Positions 19,728 to 55,233 of a DNA stretch of 64,000 bases are shown here, piece after piece. Positions within the stretch are counted from its first letter, which is position 1; each line of letters opens with the position of its first letter. The notes under the pieces are model-generated. The model was not told where the DNA came from. It did not search any database and saw nothing but the letters and a program-made list of their open reading frames with translations. The position numbers and the translations under genes were made by a program. This DNA comes from a virus, in the IMG/VR virus record IMGVR_UViG_3300038679_000131, positions 1 through 64,000 of that record; one strand, written 5' to 3'.

Positions 19728-20800
19728 GTCTGTACCTCCTTTATCAAATCAAGTCCAACTTCAAGTAATCTTTTCTTATCAAGACCTGTTTCGGATTGTT
19801 GTAAAAATTCAGATAAGACAGCTTGATGGTCACTTTTAGCCACATCAATCCTAGTTTTCTTCTCAGTTCGATACTTTACGGCAGAAACAACAAACTTAGG
19901 ATTCCAACTTTCCAATATCTTTTTACACTCTTCCACCTGTTCTTTCTTTTCTTTTAAGACTTCTCCAATCATACGAACATAGTTCCCTTCAATATCCTTT
20001 TGTTCTATGTCATTAATTGTACTGACATCAACACTTATAAATTTAGGATATTTTAATTCAACAGGTGTAAGAATATCTCCTTCAGTTTTGTAAAGATAAA
20101 CAAACTTATCTTGTCCTTCTTCTCCAAAGTCCACTTGGTATGGAGAACCAAGATACTGAATTGGTCCTACTTTTTGTGGTAAATGAATGTCCCCTGCTAA
20201 ATAACGCACATTTTTAATTGTTGGTAAATCAAATTCTCCTTCAGCTTTACGATTATTAGCAAATTTAGAACCAGGAACCGTGTTATGGAATAGAAAAAGT
20301 TTAGTAGGTTCACTATGACCTTCAATCAAAAAATGAAGTCTTTTCCACTCCTCTACAAATTGATTCCATTTTCTAAAGTAAGGAAGGAAAGCGATACCAT
20401 TGGAAGTAGAAGTTTTACTAAAATCTACCCAAGGATTACTAATAAAATCAATCTTTCCTTCTCTTTCAAGTAATCTAATTGGAGCATATTCATCTTCCGC
20501 AAAATCATGATTTCCTCGAAGTATTGTTAAAGGACAAGGGTATTTTGCCACTGCCTCAGCAAAGAGAATCATAATTCTTGCGGGAATCCGATCCTTAAGC
20601 TCGAACACATCTCCTAAAAGAAAAATTCTTTTTACTTGGTATTTTCTTCCTAATTCTCCTACTTGATTGACAATATCAATTCCTTCAAGTAGACGAGAAT
20701 TTAATCCTGACTTAGTAGGAACATTTAAATCCTTTCTTTCTCCCAATTGCAAATCTGCAAAAAATAAAAAATCGTAGGTTTTTTCTCTAATCTTTCCCAT
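19724..20800 (-). CDS. sbcD: SbcD/Mre11/gp47-like nuclease
   Basis: 'ADLQ', 'GDVFE', 'GNHD', 'GDIH', 'GSPYQ..FGE'. Confidence 0.9.
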   Translation of the reverse strand: MGKIREKTYDFLFFADLQLGERKDLNVPTKSGLNSRLLEGIDIVNQVGELGRKYQVKRIFLLGDVFELKDRIPARIMILFAEAVAKYPCPLTILRGNHDFAEDEYAPIRLLEREGKIDFISNPWVDFSKTSTSNGIAFLPYFRKWNQFVEEWKRLHFLIEGHSEPTKLFLFHNTVPGSKFANNRKAEGEFDLPTIKNVRYLAGDIHLPQKVGPIQYLGSPYQVDFGEEGQDKFVYLYKTEGDILTPVELKYPKFISVDVSTINDIEQKDIEGNYVRMIGEVLKEKKEQVEECKKILESWNPKFVVSAVKYRTEKKTRIDVAKSDHQAVLSEFLQQSETGLDKKRLLEVGLDLIKEVQT

Positions 20801-21362
20801 TTATCCTCCATTTTAAGTCTACTAAATCTGCTTGAATTATTTCAAAGAAGACTTTACCATCTATAACTACAGTAGGGGAAATTCTTTCTTCTTTTATTGC
20901 ACTTGGTCTGTCAAGTACAATCATCCATTCTGTGTCTGGATAGAGGTTAGCTTGGCATTGTTTAATTGCAGCTGGAAGATTCCATTGATTTCCACTTTTG
21001 CACTCAAGAGTAAAAGGAAAAAGTTTTCTGGCATTAGTGGACATCCTAACATCTGGACCTGATTGCCCCATTTCTCGGCTAGCTATTTCCTCATCTTTTC
21101 CCCATGGTAAATCAGTAAAAACACTTATCATTTTACAAGCCCATTGCTGAAGATTTCTACCTTTCCCTTTTGCACTTGATCTAGTAATAGTCTTTTTAAA
21201 TAGACTATTAAGAAGCTTTTCTTTCTTCTTTTGCGTTTCTGGAATAGGTAATCCTCTAAGTTTAGAAATCAAAGACCATTGTTCTTCAGTCATAGAATTA
21301 ACTAAAAATGTGACAATATCACCTTTTCTGAGCTTATCTTGTTTCTTTTTTAATCTTGCCAT
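20787..21362 (-). CDS. Holliday-junction-resolvase-like PD-(D/E)xK nuclease
   Basis: 'SSAKGKGRNLQ', 'MGQSGPDV', 'LECK'; start chosen at MARLKK, 1 nt after the recA stop. Confidence 0.7.
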   Translation of the reverse strand: MARLKKKQDKLRKGDIVTFLVNSMTEEQWSLISKLRGLPIPETQKKKEKLLNSLFKKTITRSSAKGKGRNLQQWACKMISVFTDLPWGKDEEIASREMGQSGPDVRMSTNARKLFPFTLECKSGNQWNLPAAIKQCQANLYPDTEWMIVLDRPSAIKEERISPTVVIDGKVFFEIIQADLVDLKWRINGKD

Positions 21363-21363
21363 A

Positions 21364-22449
21364 TCAGAACCGTACCTTTGGTGAACGAATTTGATCAAAC
21401 TTTGCTTCAATTTCCATCCACAAATCAATTGTTTGTTTTCTTAAATCAGCTTGTAGATTGTTTTCCTCAATATATTGAATAGCTTTTTTCATGGAAGAAT
21501 AATCTTTCGTTATGCAATCATATTGGGTGTTCCCCTTTATATCTTTTATCCATTGCAGATTTGCTCTAACATCGTCGATACCATATCCGAATATGATATA
21601 AAGAGGAACTTCACGATAAGGATCATCACAAGTATTTTTAATGCAATAAGCATAAGGGTGTATTCCTATTACTTTTTGAGCTTTTCCTTTATCAAGTTTC
21701 ACTTCATCTTCAATTTTAAATGTTCCTCCTTTTCCATAAGGGGGAGGCCCAATTCTGATTCTTAAAGAAGCATAAAATGGGAATGCTTCTCCTCCAGGGA
21801 CTATTTCTTTAGGCTTCCCTTGAGGAGTTGAACCTTGCCTAATTTGATTTGTACAAACAAGTAAACGCCTTTCTTGAGCAAGGTTAAGAGCATTTTTACG
21901 AAGGCTCTCTGACATTTTCTTTGCCTTCATCTGTCCTCTTTTATCTTCATCTTCCATTTCAACTTCAGTAGAAAGGGCAGCAAGAGAATCAACTGCCATT
22001 ACATCAATTTCACCTGAACCTTCTTCTTCTACCCATTCTTCAACTCGTTCAAATACCTCCTCAACTGTCTTTGACCTTCGATATTTTCCTTTGGCTGAAA
22101 GGTCAAGACCATTTGTCAAACGAGCATATTCTTTATCAAGACGCCCTTCTGGATCATTAAATTCGGCAAGACCTCCTTTAGCTTCAGCAGAGGAACAGAT
22201 TTCTACTACAAGCAAGGTTTTTCCATGTGCTGAAGGACCAAAGATTTCAACAACAATTCCTCCAGGTATCCCTCCTCCATATATTCGATTGCCAGAAATA
22301 GCACAATCAAGAAGGGTTGAACCTGTGCTTACTACTTTGTCAAATCTGATTGACTTGGCAATGGTTTTATTAAATTCAATGTCAGGATTAGTAGCAATTT
22401 TAGCTACTTCTTTAGCAAGTTCTTTTGGTTCACGGTTTAGTCTTCCCAT
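21364..22449 (-). CDS. recA: RecA/UvsX recombinase
   Basis: 'STGS..LD', 'GGIPGG', 'EIFGPSAHGKT', 'VDSLAAL', 'NQIR', 'PGGEA'. Confidence 0.93.
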   Translation of the reverse strand: MGRLNREPKELAKEVAKIATNPDIEFNKTIAKSIRFDKVVSTGSTLLDCAISGNRIYGGGIPGGIVVEIFGPSAHGKTLLVVEICSSAEAKGGLAEFNDPEGRLDKEYARLTNGLDLSAKGKYRRSKTVEEVFERVEEWVEEEGSGEIDVMAVDSLAALSTEVEMEDEDKRGQMKAKKMSESLRKNALNLAQERRLLVCTNQIRQGSTPQGKPKEIVPGGEAFPFYASLRIRIGPPPYGKGGTFKIEDEVKLDKGKAQKVIGIHPYAYCIKNTCDDPYREVPLYIIFGYGIDDVRANLQWIKDIKGNTQYDCITKDYSSMKKAIQYIEENNLQADLRKQTIDLWMEIEAKFDQIRSPKVRF

Positions 22450-22623
22450 GTTGATTGGCACCTTTTTAGTTTTTTATAAAAGGTTATTGTGGAAAAAATA
22501 GTAATAACATCAAGTACTATCCAGACAAGATATAATCCTAAAGATTTGTTTACTGCTAAAAGAAAGAAAAGAATAAGGAGTATTCCGGCAAGAAAACCAA
22601 GCCCGAAAATCTGAGTAAGATTC

Positions 22624-53854: not shown

Positions 53855-53874
53855 GATATTTATTAATCCTCCCT

Positions 53875-54366
53875 TTAGCAGTTGCTATCTTCATAGTCGT
53901 AAATAGTTCCACATATAGGACAGCGAATCTGTCCTCCCCATTCTTGGGCGTTCATACATTCCATACTGAATGATGGTCTATTCCAATGAGCAAACAGCCA
54001 AGGAGCTGGATAGATTGTAACTTTAAGACAGTTACAATCTATTTCAGGATAAGGGGGCATGGGAAGTATTTCTTCATTATCTATTCTTCTTACTAGGTCT
54101 TCATACTCCCAGATTTTTTTCTGTGCTTCACAATCTTCTTTGTGGATTGGTATCTCTAATGTTTCTGGAGATTCCATATCACTCTCAGAGGGTGAATGAT
54201 TGCAGTTAGGACAAGCATATTCTTGCTCTAATTTTAAGTCCTCACAGATCATACACCTAAAGTAACTTCGTTCTTCTTTATGAGGGGTAAGTGCATTACA
54301 ATCTTCACACCATTTATATCCTTTAGGGATTTCTAAAATCCCTGTTTCTTTACTTACTTTTAACAT
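53875..54366 (-). CDS. Multi-CxxC zinc-binding protein
   Basis: Four or more CxxC pairs. Confidence 0.6.
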   Translation of the reverse strand: MLKVSKETGILEIPKGYKWCEDCNALTPHKEERSYFRCMICEDLKLEQEYACPNCNHSPSESDMESPETLEIPIHKEDCEAQKKIWEYEDLVRRIDNEEILPMPPYPEIDCNCLKVTIYPAPWLFAHWNRPSFSMECMNAQEWGGQIRCPICGTIYDYEDSNC

Positions 54367-54368
54367 AA

Positions 54369-54944
54369 TTAATCCTCCTTATCAACAGTTCTAGTGTAGT
54401 TACTTCGGGTAATAGCAGCCAGTTGAGCGTTAAAACCACTAATGCTAGGTGCTGCGTCATTTTGGAATGCTGTCAACATCCCTTTCAAGAAAAAGTTTAA
54501 GGCACCCCCATTACTTGATTTTGCCAAAAGCTTTCCATTCATAGCAACTCCACATCTAATTTCCATAGTAGTTCCACTGCCAGAAGAACTTGGACGAGAG
54601 TGAATCCAAATATCATCTAAATTTTGATTCTTCCGGTACATATTAATCCTGTTGATTAAATCTTGTAGGGTCATTTGTTCCTCCTTTTCACAAATTGGGC
54701 AAATATTTTCAGAGTGGTAAGAATCTGTTTTATGACAGGTAAAAAATCCTGTTTTGTCTCCTTCTTTAGAAACGTCCCAACTTCCATTTATATATTTTTC
54801 ATAGAAGTGGTTACCCTTCCAAAGGGGATTTGAAAGGAAAGTGATTTTATGTTTTCCTTCTTTTAATCCTTCTAATGAAAGGAATTTCTTTGTGTCAAGA
54901 CGTTTAGAATTGGATGATTTCTTTTTATTTTGGGACTTGCTCAA
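54369..54944 (-). CDS. Hypothetical; N-terminal half resembles a gp32 Zn domain
   Basis: 'LKEGKHKITFL...C...CPICE'. Confidence 0.45.
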   Translation of the reverse strand: MSKSQNKKKSSNSKRLDTKKFLSLEGLKEGKHKITFLSNPLWKGNHFYEKYINGSWDVSKEGDKTGFFTCHKTDSYHSENICPICEKEEQMTLQDLINRINMYRKNQNLDDIWIHSRPSSSGSGTTMEIRCGVAMNGKLLAKSSNGGALNFFLKGMLTAFQNDAAPSISGFNAQLAAITRSNYTRTVDKED

Positions 54945-55233
54945 AGTTTTTCTCCCATTTTTCCCTTGCTCCGATCCTATTTATAGAAAACAAATTGTAA
55001 TCGCATTTAGGACAACGGAAAGTAATTCCAAGTGAGATATGGTCAGATGTCAACCATTCTCCACATTGTCGGCAAAAGGCTGCATCCGCCACTGGGATTT
55101 CTATTTGACCGCCACTTCCATTTTCTTTTGGAGAATCCTGTACTGATTGTTTCTCCTTCTCCATCCGGTCGGTGGACTTAGATAACAAGTCCAGAAAGGT
55201 GGGCATTGGTGGTCTTGGTTTGAGTCGGCTCAC
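54925..55233 (-). CDS. Zn-ribbon protein (N-terminal MSRLKPR)
   Basis: CRQC, CPKC; RBS AGGAGG. Confidence 0.55.
   Translation of the reverse strand: MSRLKPRPPMPTFLDLLSKSTDRMEKEKQSVQDSPKENGSGGQIEIPVADAAFCRQCGEWLTSDHISLGITFRCPKCDYNLFSINRIGAREKWEKNFEQVPK

Follow-up and report, generated by a model that had tools for sequence, protein, structure and literature searches.

Positions 1 to 64,000 of the IMG/VR virus record IMGVR_UViG_3300038679_000131 (64,000 nucleotides, hereafter the window) raise the question of why DNA-acting proteins of unrelated families share one short peptide at a free end, most often as M-[S/G/A or none]-R-L-[K/R/N] at the N-terminus (here called the tag). The peptide was first proposed from the letters of the window for 11 minus-strand N-termini, and all 11 read as claimed. 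A literature search turned up no earlier account of a tag of this kind.

The record is a single contig of 98,838 bp with a 28-bp overlap between its ends, and the window covers its first 64 kb. The source is an uncultured tailed phage with a GC content of ~35% and strong Shine-Dalgarno sites, and gene calling on the whole genome gave ~170 genes. A Megablast search of 24 kb against 50,697 cultured-phage records returned no match; the best cultured-phage protein matches were 25% identical for PolA and 32% identical for RecA, so no experimental system is at hand. The nearest relative compared was G001, a 45.8-kb IMG/VR record with protein identities of 33-85%. For the wider clade, an alignment-based scan found the RecA family to be encoded by at least 535 IMG/VR stretches, of which 80 loci, all metagenomic fragments, were kept. 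The strict pattern used for counting was R-L-[K/R/N]-x(0-1)-[K/R], and the looser clade pattern was a hydrophobic residue followed by a basic pair.

A terminal tag on DNA-acting proteins

The tagged proteins are as follows (positions are those of the record).

20787..21362, minus strand: PD-(D/E)xK nuclease (resolvase-like); a lineage-specific N-terminal extension of ~53 aa opens with the tag
21364..22449, minus strand: RecA-like recombinase (PF00154, E 5e-31); N-terminal tag G-R-L-N-R
23886..25019, minus strand: gp32-like single-stranded DNA-binding protein (SSB); an acidic linker and a Zn-knuckle module precede the tag, which forms the C-terminus (G-R-L-K-R-stop)
25021..25515, minus strand: UvsY-like mediator (phrog_231); A-R-L-K-K eight residues from the C-terminus
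27796..28371, minus strand: NUMOD4-HNH homing endonuclease; N-terminal tag
33271..34221, minus strand: DpdA/TGT-like transglycosylase (phrog_887); tag on an N-terminal extension of ~10 residues, and a separate C-terminal G-F-F motif
34692..35582, minus strand: GIY-YIG/NUMOD3 homing endonuclease; N-terminal tag
37199..37624, minus strand: NUMOD4-HNH homing endonuclease; N-terminal tag
39794..40324, minus strand: NUMOD4-HNH homing endonuclease; N-terminal tag
44039..45067, minus strand: probable nested product inside the open reading frame (ORF) 44039-45283; it opens with the tag at Met 73, an internal start that has an AGGAG of its own
45584..48334, minus strand: DnaB-like helicase with a LAGLIDADG intein; N-terminal tag
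53130..53663, minus strand: NUMOD4-HNH homing endonuclease; N-terminal tag
54925..55233, minus strand: 102-aa zinc-ribbon protein (weak Zn-ribbon matches), GTG start; N-terminal tag
60069..60476, minus strand: DUF1257 protein; ends R-R-L-K-L-R-R-stop
74153, outside the window: TerS, small terminase subunit; N-terminal tag
87206, outside the window: TerL, large terminase subunit; N-terminal tag
94910-95290 of the genome, plus strand: 126-aa head-module protein; ends S-R-L-R-K-S

Seven of the 11 starts first proposed (28371, 34221, 35582, 37624, 40324, 48334 and 55233) are the first possible start codon in a mechanical ORF list, so the starts were not picked to suit the motif; at the remaining four, a Shine-Dalgarno site is present or the upstream stop is abutted. 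The copies noted earlier at the SSB C-terminus and near that of the UvsY-like protein are both there. In the whole proteome, the strict pattern occurs 24 times: 12 occurrences lie at residue 2 or 3, 1 lies right after an internal Met, and 4 lie in the last 12 residues (SSB, UvsY-like mediator, DUF1257 protein and 126-aa protein).

The enrichment test on N-termini proposed with the original prediction gave a count ~100 times the expectation, even under N-terminal composition: 12 tags were observed versus 0.10-0.11 expected from the interior rate or from that composition (Poisson P ~1e-21; P ~8e-15 with 9 independent families counted). Shuffling of residues 2-10 within each protein gave a mean of 0.3 tags and a maximum of 4 in 20,000 trials. 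These counts and the shuffling exclude a general N-terminal Lys/Arg bias as the explanation. At C-termini, 4 tags were observed versus 0.4 expected. The register is fixed relative to the free end, with Arg always at residue 2 or 3. Most tags hold three to five basic residues in the first eight; RecA and its close homologues conserve two. From the established specificity of methionine aminopeptidase, the Met should be removed wherever Ser, Gly or Ala follows it, so that the mature chain would always have Arg second and Leu third.

Every carrier acts on DNA, as had been proposed for most of them, but PolA, FEN, the clamp loader, primase, the SF2 helicase and SbcCD are without the tag: a DNA-acting role is necessary for the tag, not sufficient. 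The tag had also been described as missing from genes of other kinds, and it is indeed missing from tail, lysis and metabolic genes; the packaging genes depart from this, TerS and TerL both being tagged. An estimate of about eight independent families was too low, there being 10 at N-termini in addition to the four C-terminal cases. The family assignments made earlier (RecA, four NUMOD4-HNH, GIY-YIG, DnaB, DpdA/TGT and Zn-ribbon) mostly agree with those given here. What had been called a resolvase at 21362 is a PD-(D/E)xK nuclease by its columns E...D...E-x-K, which are invariant in homologues, and by a fold search whose matches are weak and all to PD-(D/E)xK nucleases, Hjc 1ob8 among them; this 191-aa protein had no match in Pfam, PHROGs or PDB sequence searches.

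Two further genes of the record come near the pattern. The portal at 88973 (plus strand) begins M-S-R-L-G-K, a partial match, and the protein after it (90778-91899, plus strand) has M-G-R-L-R-K 17 residues from its end.

Selection on the peptide, its acquisition and its distribution

The claim that the tag is a peptide signal and not an RNA operator is borne out by codon-base alignment, by synonymous changes and by the C-terminal copies. In 13 aligned start regions, the only bases that never vary are TG in the start codon and the middle base of the Arg codon and of the Leu codon, and the sequences upstream are unrelated; nucleotide conservation beyond the need of the amino acids, the mark of a translational operator or downstream box, was not found. 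G001 keeps the tag on DpdA, DnaB, RecA, the SSB tip, the DUF1257 tip and the protein at the zinc-ribbon position. Over seven orthologous tags compared with G001, the 14 Arg/Leu codons show 8 synonymous and 0 non-synonymous changes, which shows selection at the peptide level. The SSB orthologue, for instance, ends G-R-L-R-R-stop, with its Arg and Leu codons changed synonymously.

The same comparison bears on ORF 44039-45283 (minus strand, 414 aa), in which the first 72 residues are winged helix-turn-helix (wHTH)-like and are followed by the in-frame internal start at 45067. Its orthologue is 33% identical overall and identical at 10/10 residues from the internal Met, the internal starts of both orthologues have their own Shine-Dalgarno site, and the differences within the tag are synonymous. 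The identical residues and the two ribosome-binding sites make a nested, tagged product likely, and the ORF is thus likely to give two nested products.

A check that cellular RecA, DnaB and TGT homologues are without the tag had been proposed; outside the lineage, homologues of DpdA and of the PD-(D/E)xK nuclease do not have it. Six homologues of the nuclease begin ~53 residues later, and those of DpdA begin directly at the conserved F-L-D-S-G-A core. The G001 gene after RecA encodes an Hjc-like resolvase that is non-homologous to the nuclease and also has an N-terminal extension opening with the tag. The proposed acquisition of the tag by the homing endonucleases was likewise upheld: among 77 NUMOD4-HNH homologues with a conserved E-x-W-K start, 72 have a neutral pre-sequence of 1-10 residues and just 5 have a basic one, and the three nearest relatives carry the tag. 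All five homing endonucleases are absent from the corresponding G001 sites, which marks them as recent insertions that nevertheless use the local tag. By these sequence comparisons, the tag is a lineage-specific add-on under selection.

On RecA, DnaB, UvsY and SSB, a looser form of the tag is ancestral in a large uncultured clade, so the tag is not private to this genome. The recurring gene order of the clade is DpdA, clamp, PolA, clamp loader, UvsY, SSB, RecA, resolvase and SbcCD. Among 64 non-redundant loci, the looser motif is found at 62% of RecA N-termini, 53% of SSB C-termini and 81% of UvsY C-termini; for PolA, FEN, clamp and loader, either end, the figure is 0-21%. Close RecA homologues keep x-R-[L/I], and in 38/58 loci the RecA residue before the first basic pair is aliphatic or Phe. 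The UvsY clade consensus near the C-terminus is N-P-R-L-K-R-R, the DnaB N-termini of six further clade genomes have [L/I]-R-[K/R], and many TerL relatives also carry the looser motif. Spread to a dozen proteins, with modification, packaging and homing enzymes among them, is seen only in the lineage of the studied phage among the clade genomes examined.

Tags also resemble each other within genomes. K-I-N-[K/R]-R recurs in L022 on RecA, at the SSB tip and on a homing endonuclease; in L017 the opening T-K-I-N is identical in RecA and in two unrelated endonucleases, and the SSB ends K-L-N-R-R. A permutation test of RecA N-termini versus SSB C-termini gave p = 2e-4, or ~0.01 once K and R are treated as one residue. 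Since the loci are related, this likeness is moderate evidence. In L030 and L032 the motif is missing from RecA, SSB and UvsY together, and their RecA begins right after a stop codon.

Some observations on the same proteins are added here. Clade RecA C-termini have a conserved tip of the R-K-P-K-x-R-F type, and 78% of them are basic. The SSB of L024 (8956-9972), alone in the clade, ends in the canonical bacterial tip D-D-D-I-P-F in place of the basic tail; RecA and UvsY of L024 keep the basic motif. Some TerL relatives (P0002, P0018) have a LAGLIDADG insert.

Candidate partners of the tag and rival explanations

About an even chance is given to the reading preferred here, that the tag is a portable, strictly terminal linear peptide that would hold DNA-transaction proteins to a single shared partner on the phage DNA as it replicates. 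When mature, the tag would read x-R-L-[K/R/N]-x-[K/R] if N-terminal, and C-terminal copies would have the same residues. Its looser form is ancestral on four proteins that assemble on single-stranded DNA (ssDNA), namely the RecA-like recombinase, DnaB, the UvsY-like mediator and the gp32-like SSB. In this lineage the tag was acquired, through short N-terminal extensions, by DpdA, both terminase subunits, the PD-(D/E)xK nuclease, the nested wHTH-family protein, the zinc-ribbon protein and the five homing endonucleases.

The likeliest partner would be the gp32-like SSB on ssDNA, bound through its acidic linker or core, an identification by analogy that is tentative and rather doubtful; the SSB's own basic tip would act as a built-in competitor or bridge. 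The SSB-ssDNA platform is favoured as reader because the ancestral carriers must assemble on SSB-coated ssDNA and because phage T4 offers precedents. T4 UvsX, UvsY, gp59 and Dda bind the acidic C-domain of gp32 (PMC3016280), and the basic N-terminal LAST peptide of gp32 docks on the neighbouring gp32 (PMC12893549). The AF2 model of the SSB is confident for the core and for the Zn module; the acidic linker (262-319) is disordered, and the tail that holds the tag is free, with a pLDDT of ~49 over the last ~10 residues. A complex prediction for RecA with the C-terminal module of the SSB (residues 318-377) scored 0.08 (mark 0.32) and speaks neither for nor against the pairing. Another gp32-like core protein, a 223-aa paralogue at 55541-56212 (minus strand) that matches the SSB family with an hhalign probability of 98.8%, has neither the N-terminal helix nor the acidic linker, the Zn module or the tail; G001 conserves it.

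A stronger form of the proposal, possible though somewhat improbable, is that the tag serves as a private address code that co-evolves. A single reader encoded by the phage, perhaps the SSB platform, would recognise a genome-specific terminal peptide carried by replication, recombination, modification and packaging enzymes, and homing endonucleases would copy the local spelling for access to the same site. If true, the code could be a general, undescribed way in which mid-sized phages organise DNA transactions without a compartment, and the gathering of recombinase, helicase, SSB, modifying enzyme, terminase and homing endonucleases by one reader through a seven-residue label would be a simple organising principle. 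It would also suggest how mobile endonucleases are integrated into the machinery of the host phage, make a genome's own tag a handle for finding unknown DNA-acting proteins in uncultured phages, and offer a portable tag for sending cargo to phage replication sites.

Several results weigh against a single protein reader on the replicating DNA, and against SSB as that reader. The tag is missing from PolA, FEN, primase and further proteins that come into contact with SSB. Lineages without a basic SSB tail mostly keep the RecA tag, so the tags are not strictly co-dependent. The acidic linker, tried as a discriminating feature, was rejected, being present also in the tagless L030 and L032. In a scan of 811 alignment columns (RecA, SSB, UvsY, PolA, FEN, loader and clamp) for residues that track the basic tail of SSB, the lowest p was 5e-4, and none was significant after correction. 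Co-variation in the clade is modest and partly a matter of K-versus-R composition, the related loci are not independent, and the permutation comparisons with UvsY are weaker and lose significance with K and R merged. The start sites rest on gene calling and ORF logic. Since all the tagged proteins are DNA-binding, the partner could be DNA itself, the main rival to the SSB platform in that role. In the 811-column scan, RecA columns 107-131 cluster among the top, which is a lead only.

DNA as partner corresponds to a non-specific nucleic-acid tether or "molecular sled," in which a basic arm lies on the DNA backbone and the cargo slides or stays with no protein reader; this is unlikely, if still to be reckoned with. 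All tagged proteins act on DNA, no structural, lysis or metabolic protein is tagged, the four ancestral carriers are all ssDNA-binding, and the motif occurs at either end on flexible termini. The clade consensus L-K-R-R resembles the core S-L-K-R-R-R of the adenovirus peptide pVIc, K/R tetrapeptides bind and slide on DNA with help from a free N-terminal amine (PMC4797294), and the T4 UvsY motif L-K-A-R-L-D-Y (KARL) is an ssDNA surface (PMC3016280). Sled activity is, however, robust to sequence and spacing and wants ~3-4 basic residues, whereas here the Arg-Leu/Ile pair is invariant in the lineage and the basic count is variable: RecA and its close homologues hold just two basic residues, followed by acidic ones. 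The strict register at residue 2 or 3, the greater likeness of tags within genomes than between them and the joint loss on three proteins in L030 and L032 also weigh against a sled.

Recognition by an AAA+ unfoldase or segregase, either a host Clp-type enzyme or the following product of the window, is quite improbable.

60769..62271, minus strand: Cdc48/p97/VAT-like classical AAA ATPase (PF00004, E 3e-26; Cdc48/VCP chains, E 1e-38 to 1e-34)

Its Walker A and Walker B motifs are intact, and the pore-loop region reads L-V-G-E-S-E. Such an enzyme would strip stable protein-DNA complexes (RecA filaments, DnaB rings, terminase and product-bound endonucleases) or turn them over. The tags are strictly terminal, unstructured and at either end, as threading ATPases engage their substrates; MuA is recognised by ClpX through its basic C-terminus, and lambda O through its N-terminus. 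The lineage with the expanded tag set is also the sole one that encodes a classical AAA ATPase, which adjoins the tag-ending DUF1257 protein. The ATPase was not found in 8 other clade genomes, however, and in these RecA, SSB, UvsY and DnaB bear the motif; it was rejected as universal or ancestral reader and at most explains the expansion of the tag. The association comes from a single lineage, unfolding of abundant SSB and RecA seems costly, and no protease partner was seen. A translation-initiation or mRNA feature (downstream box, repressor operator), or chance arising from Lys/Arg bias and miscalled starts, is very improbable indeed: A-rich codons (AGA, TTA, AAA) prevail in several tags and N-termini are Lys-rich in these phages, but the invariance limited to Arg/Leu-encoding bases, the unrelated upstream regions, the synonymous differences between orthologues, the same peptide at C-termini, the size of the excess and the seven tags at an ORF's first start codon all speak against it.

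The sliding clamp was set aside as reader, its expected clients bearing a different, hydrophobic motif. A G-F-F / F-G-L-L motif runs across the clade at the PolA N-terminus, the FEN C-terminus and the DpdA C-terminus; the proteins concerned in the window are the following.

31955..33007, minus strand: sliding clamp (phrog_947); probably not the reader
28587-31100: PolA; N-terminus N-R-I-I-K-P-F-F, clade form M-K-G-F-F
33271-34221, minus strand: DpdA; C-terminus V-G-F-F-G, clade form G-F-G-L/F
22914-23774: FEN; C-terminus A-F-G-L-L
31286-31492: conserved 68-aa protein; N-terminus M-K-I-F-F

In sequence, these end motifs resemble peptides that bind clamps, and that of DpdA would tie this DNA transglycosylase to the sliding clamp. 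DpdA carries both terminal motifs, and the pair suggests DNA hypermodification coupled to the clamp and to the reader of the tag.

Other features lie around the tagged genes. The DUF1257 protein, the single-domain AAA ATPase and a DUF3150 protein form a module (60069-63271, minus strand) found only in the lineage of the studied phage among 10 clade genomes examined. Inteins are present in DnaB (45584-48334, LAGLIDADG) and in the clamp loader (25821-27785, minus strand), which has 654 aa here; its relatives are intein-free at 312-313 aa. The protein at 40421-41182 (minus strand, 253 aa) has an acidic N-terminal part and long Lys-rich stretches of the A-K-K-P-K-K type; with this histone H1-like composition it had no family match. 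A phage-encoded HU (PF00216) lies at 15893-16177 (minus strand), and a pentapeptide-repeat protein (PF00805, E 4e-36), a possible DNA mimic, at 65726-66250 (minus strand) of the genome.

Comparison with known systems

The T4 gp32 modules are a precedent for a short basic terminal peptide (LAST, K-R-K-S-T) that docks on an SSB of the gp32 type, as is proposed for the tag; the present SSB is also gp32-like and has an acidic linker, and the T4 counterparts of three ancestral carriers (recombinase, mediator and helicase system) are known gp32 clients. The LAST composition (Lys/Arg)3(Ser/Thr)2 was not found, since the tag has no Ser/Thr pair and has a conserved Leu that is absent from LAST. LAST sits on the N-terminus of its SSB and confers cooperativity by docking on the core of the neighbouring SSB, whereas the SSB tag here is C-terminal, and residues 5-26 still form a separate, T4-like N-terminal helix whose start is of the D-R-K type. 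The tag also differs from the T4 case in being carried by about twelve further proteins, terminase and homing endonucleases among them.

The bacterial SSB tail has an acidic-hydrophobic tip (D-D-D-[I/L]-P-F) that sits on the hub and is read by client pockets, unlike the basic tip found here with the same peptide on the clients. In phage T7, the SSB gp2.5 and the helicase gp4 carry the same acidic tail. The present case resembles replisome-hub client peptides, which give access to one hub, in having short terminal peptides on unrelated DNA enzymes, and SSB and helicase share a tail as in T7; it differs in that the tag is neither acidic nor hydrophobic but basic. Clamp client motifs (QL[SD]LF, the PIP box and gp45 tails) are of another kind: their hydrophobic or aromatic core fits the clamp cleft, whereas the single aliphatic residue of the tag stands among basic ones.

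AAA+ terminal recognition tags are known from the ClpX substrates MuA, lambda O and ssrA and from Cdc48/VAT substrates. The tag is like them in its terminal position at either end, in its lack of structure and in its frequent presence on proteins that form stable complexes with DNA, with a Cdc48-like ATPase in the lineage; it differs in that the ATPase is missing from most genomes with ancestral tags. The adenovirus pVIc sled, with its core K-R-R-R (PMC4740752, PMC4797294), is also a short basic terminal peptide, attaches to any cargo and keeps the cargo on DNA. It tolerates any order and spacing, whereas the tag has an invariant Arg followed by Leu/Ile, a fixed register and a genome-specific spelling. 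Among these systems, the tag is taken to be a variant of hub-client peptides, with a real chance of something more general.

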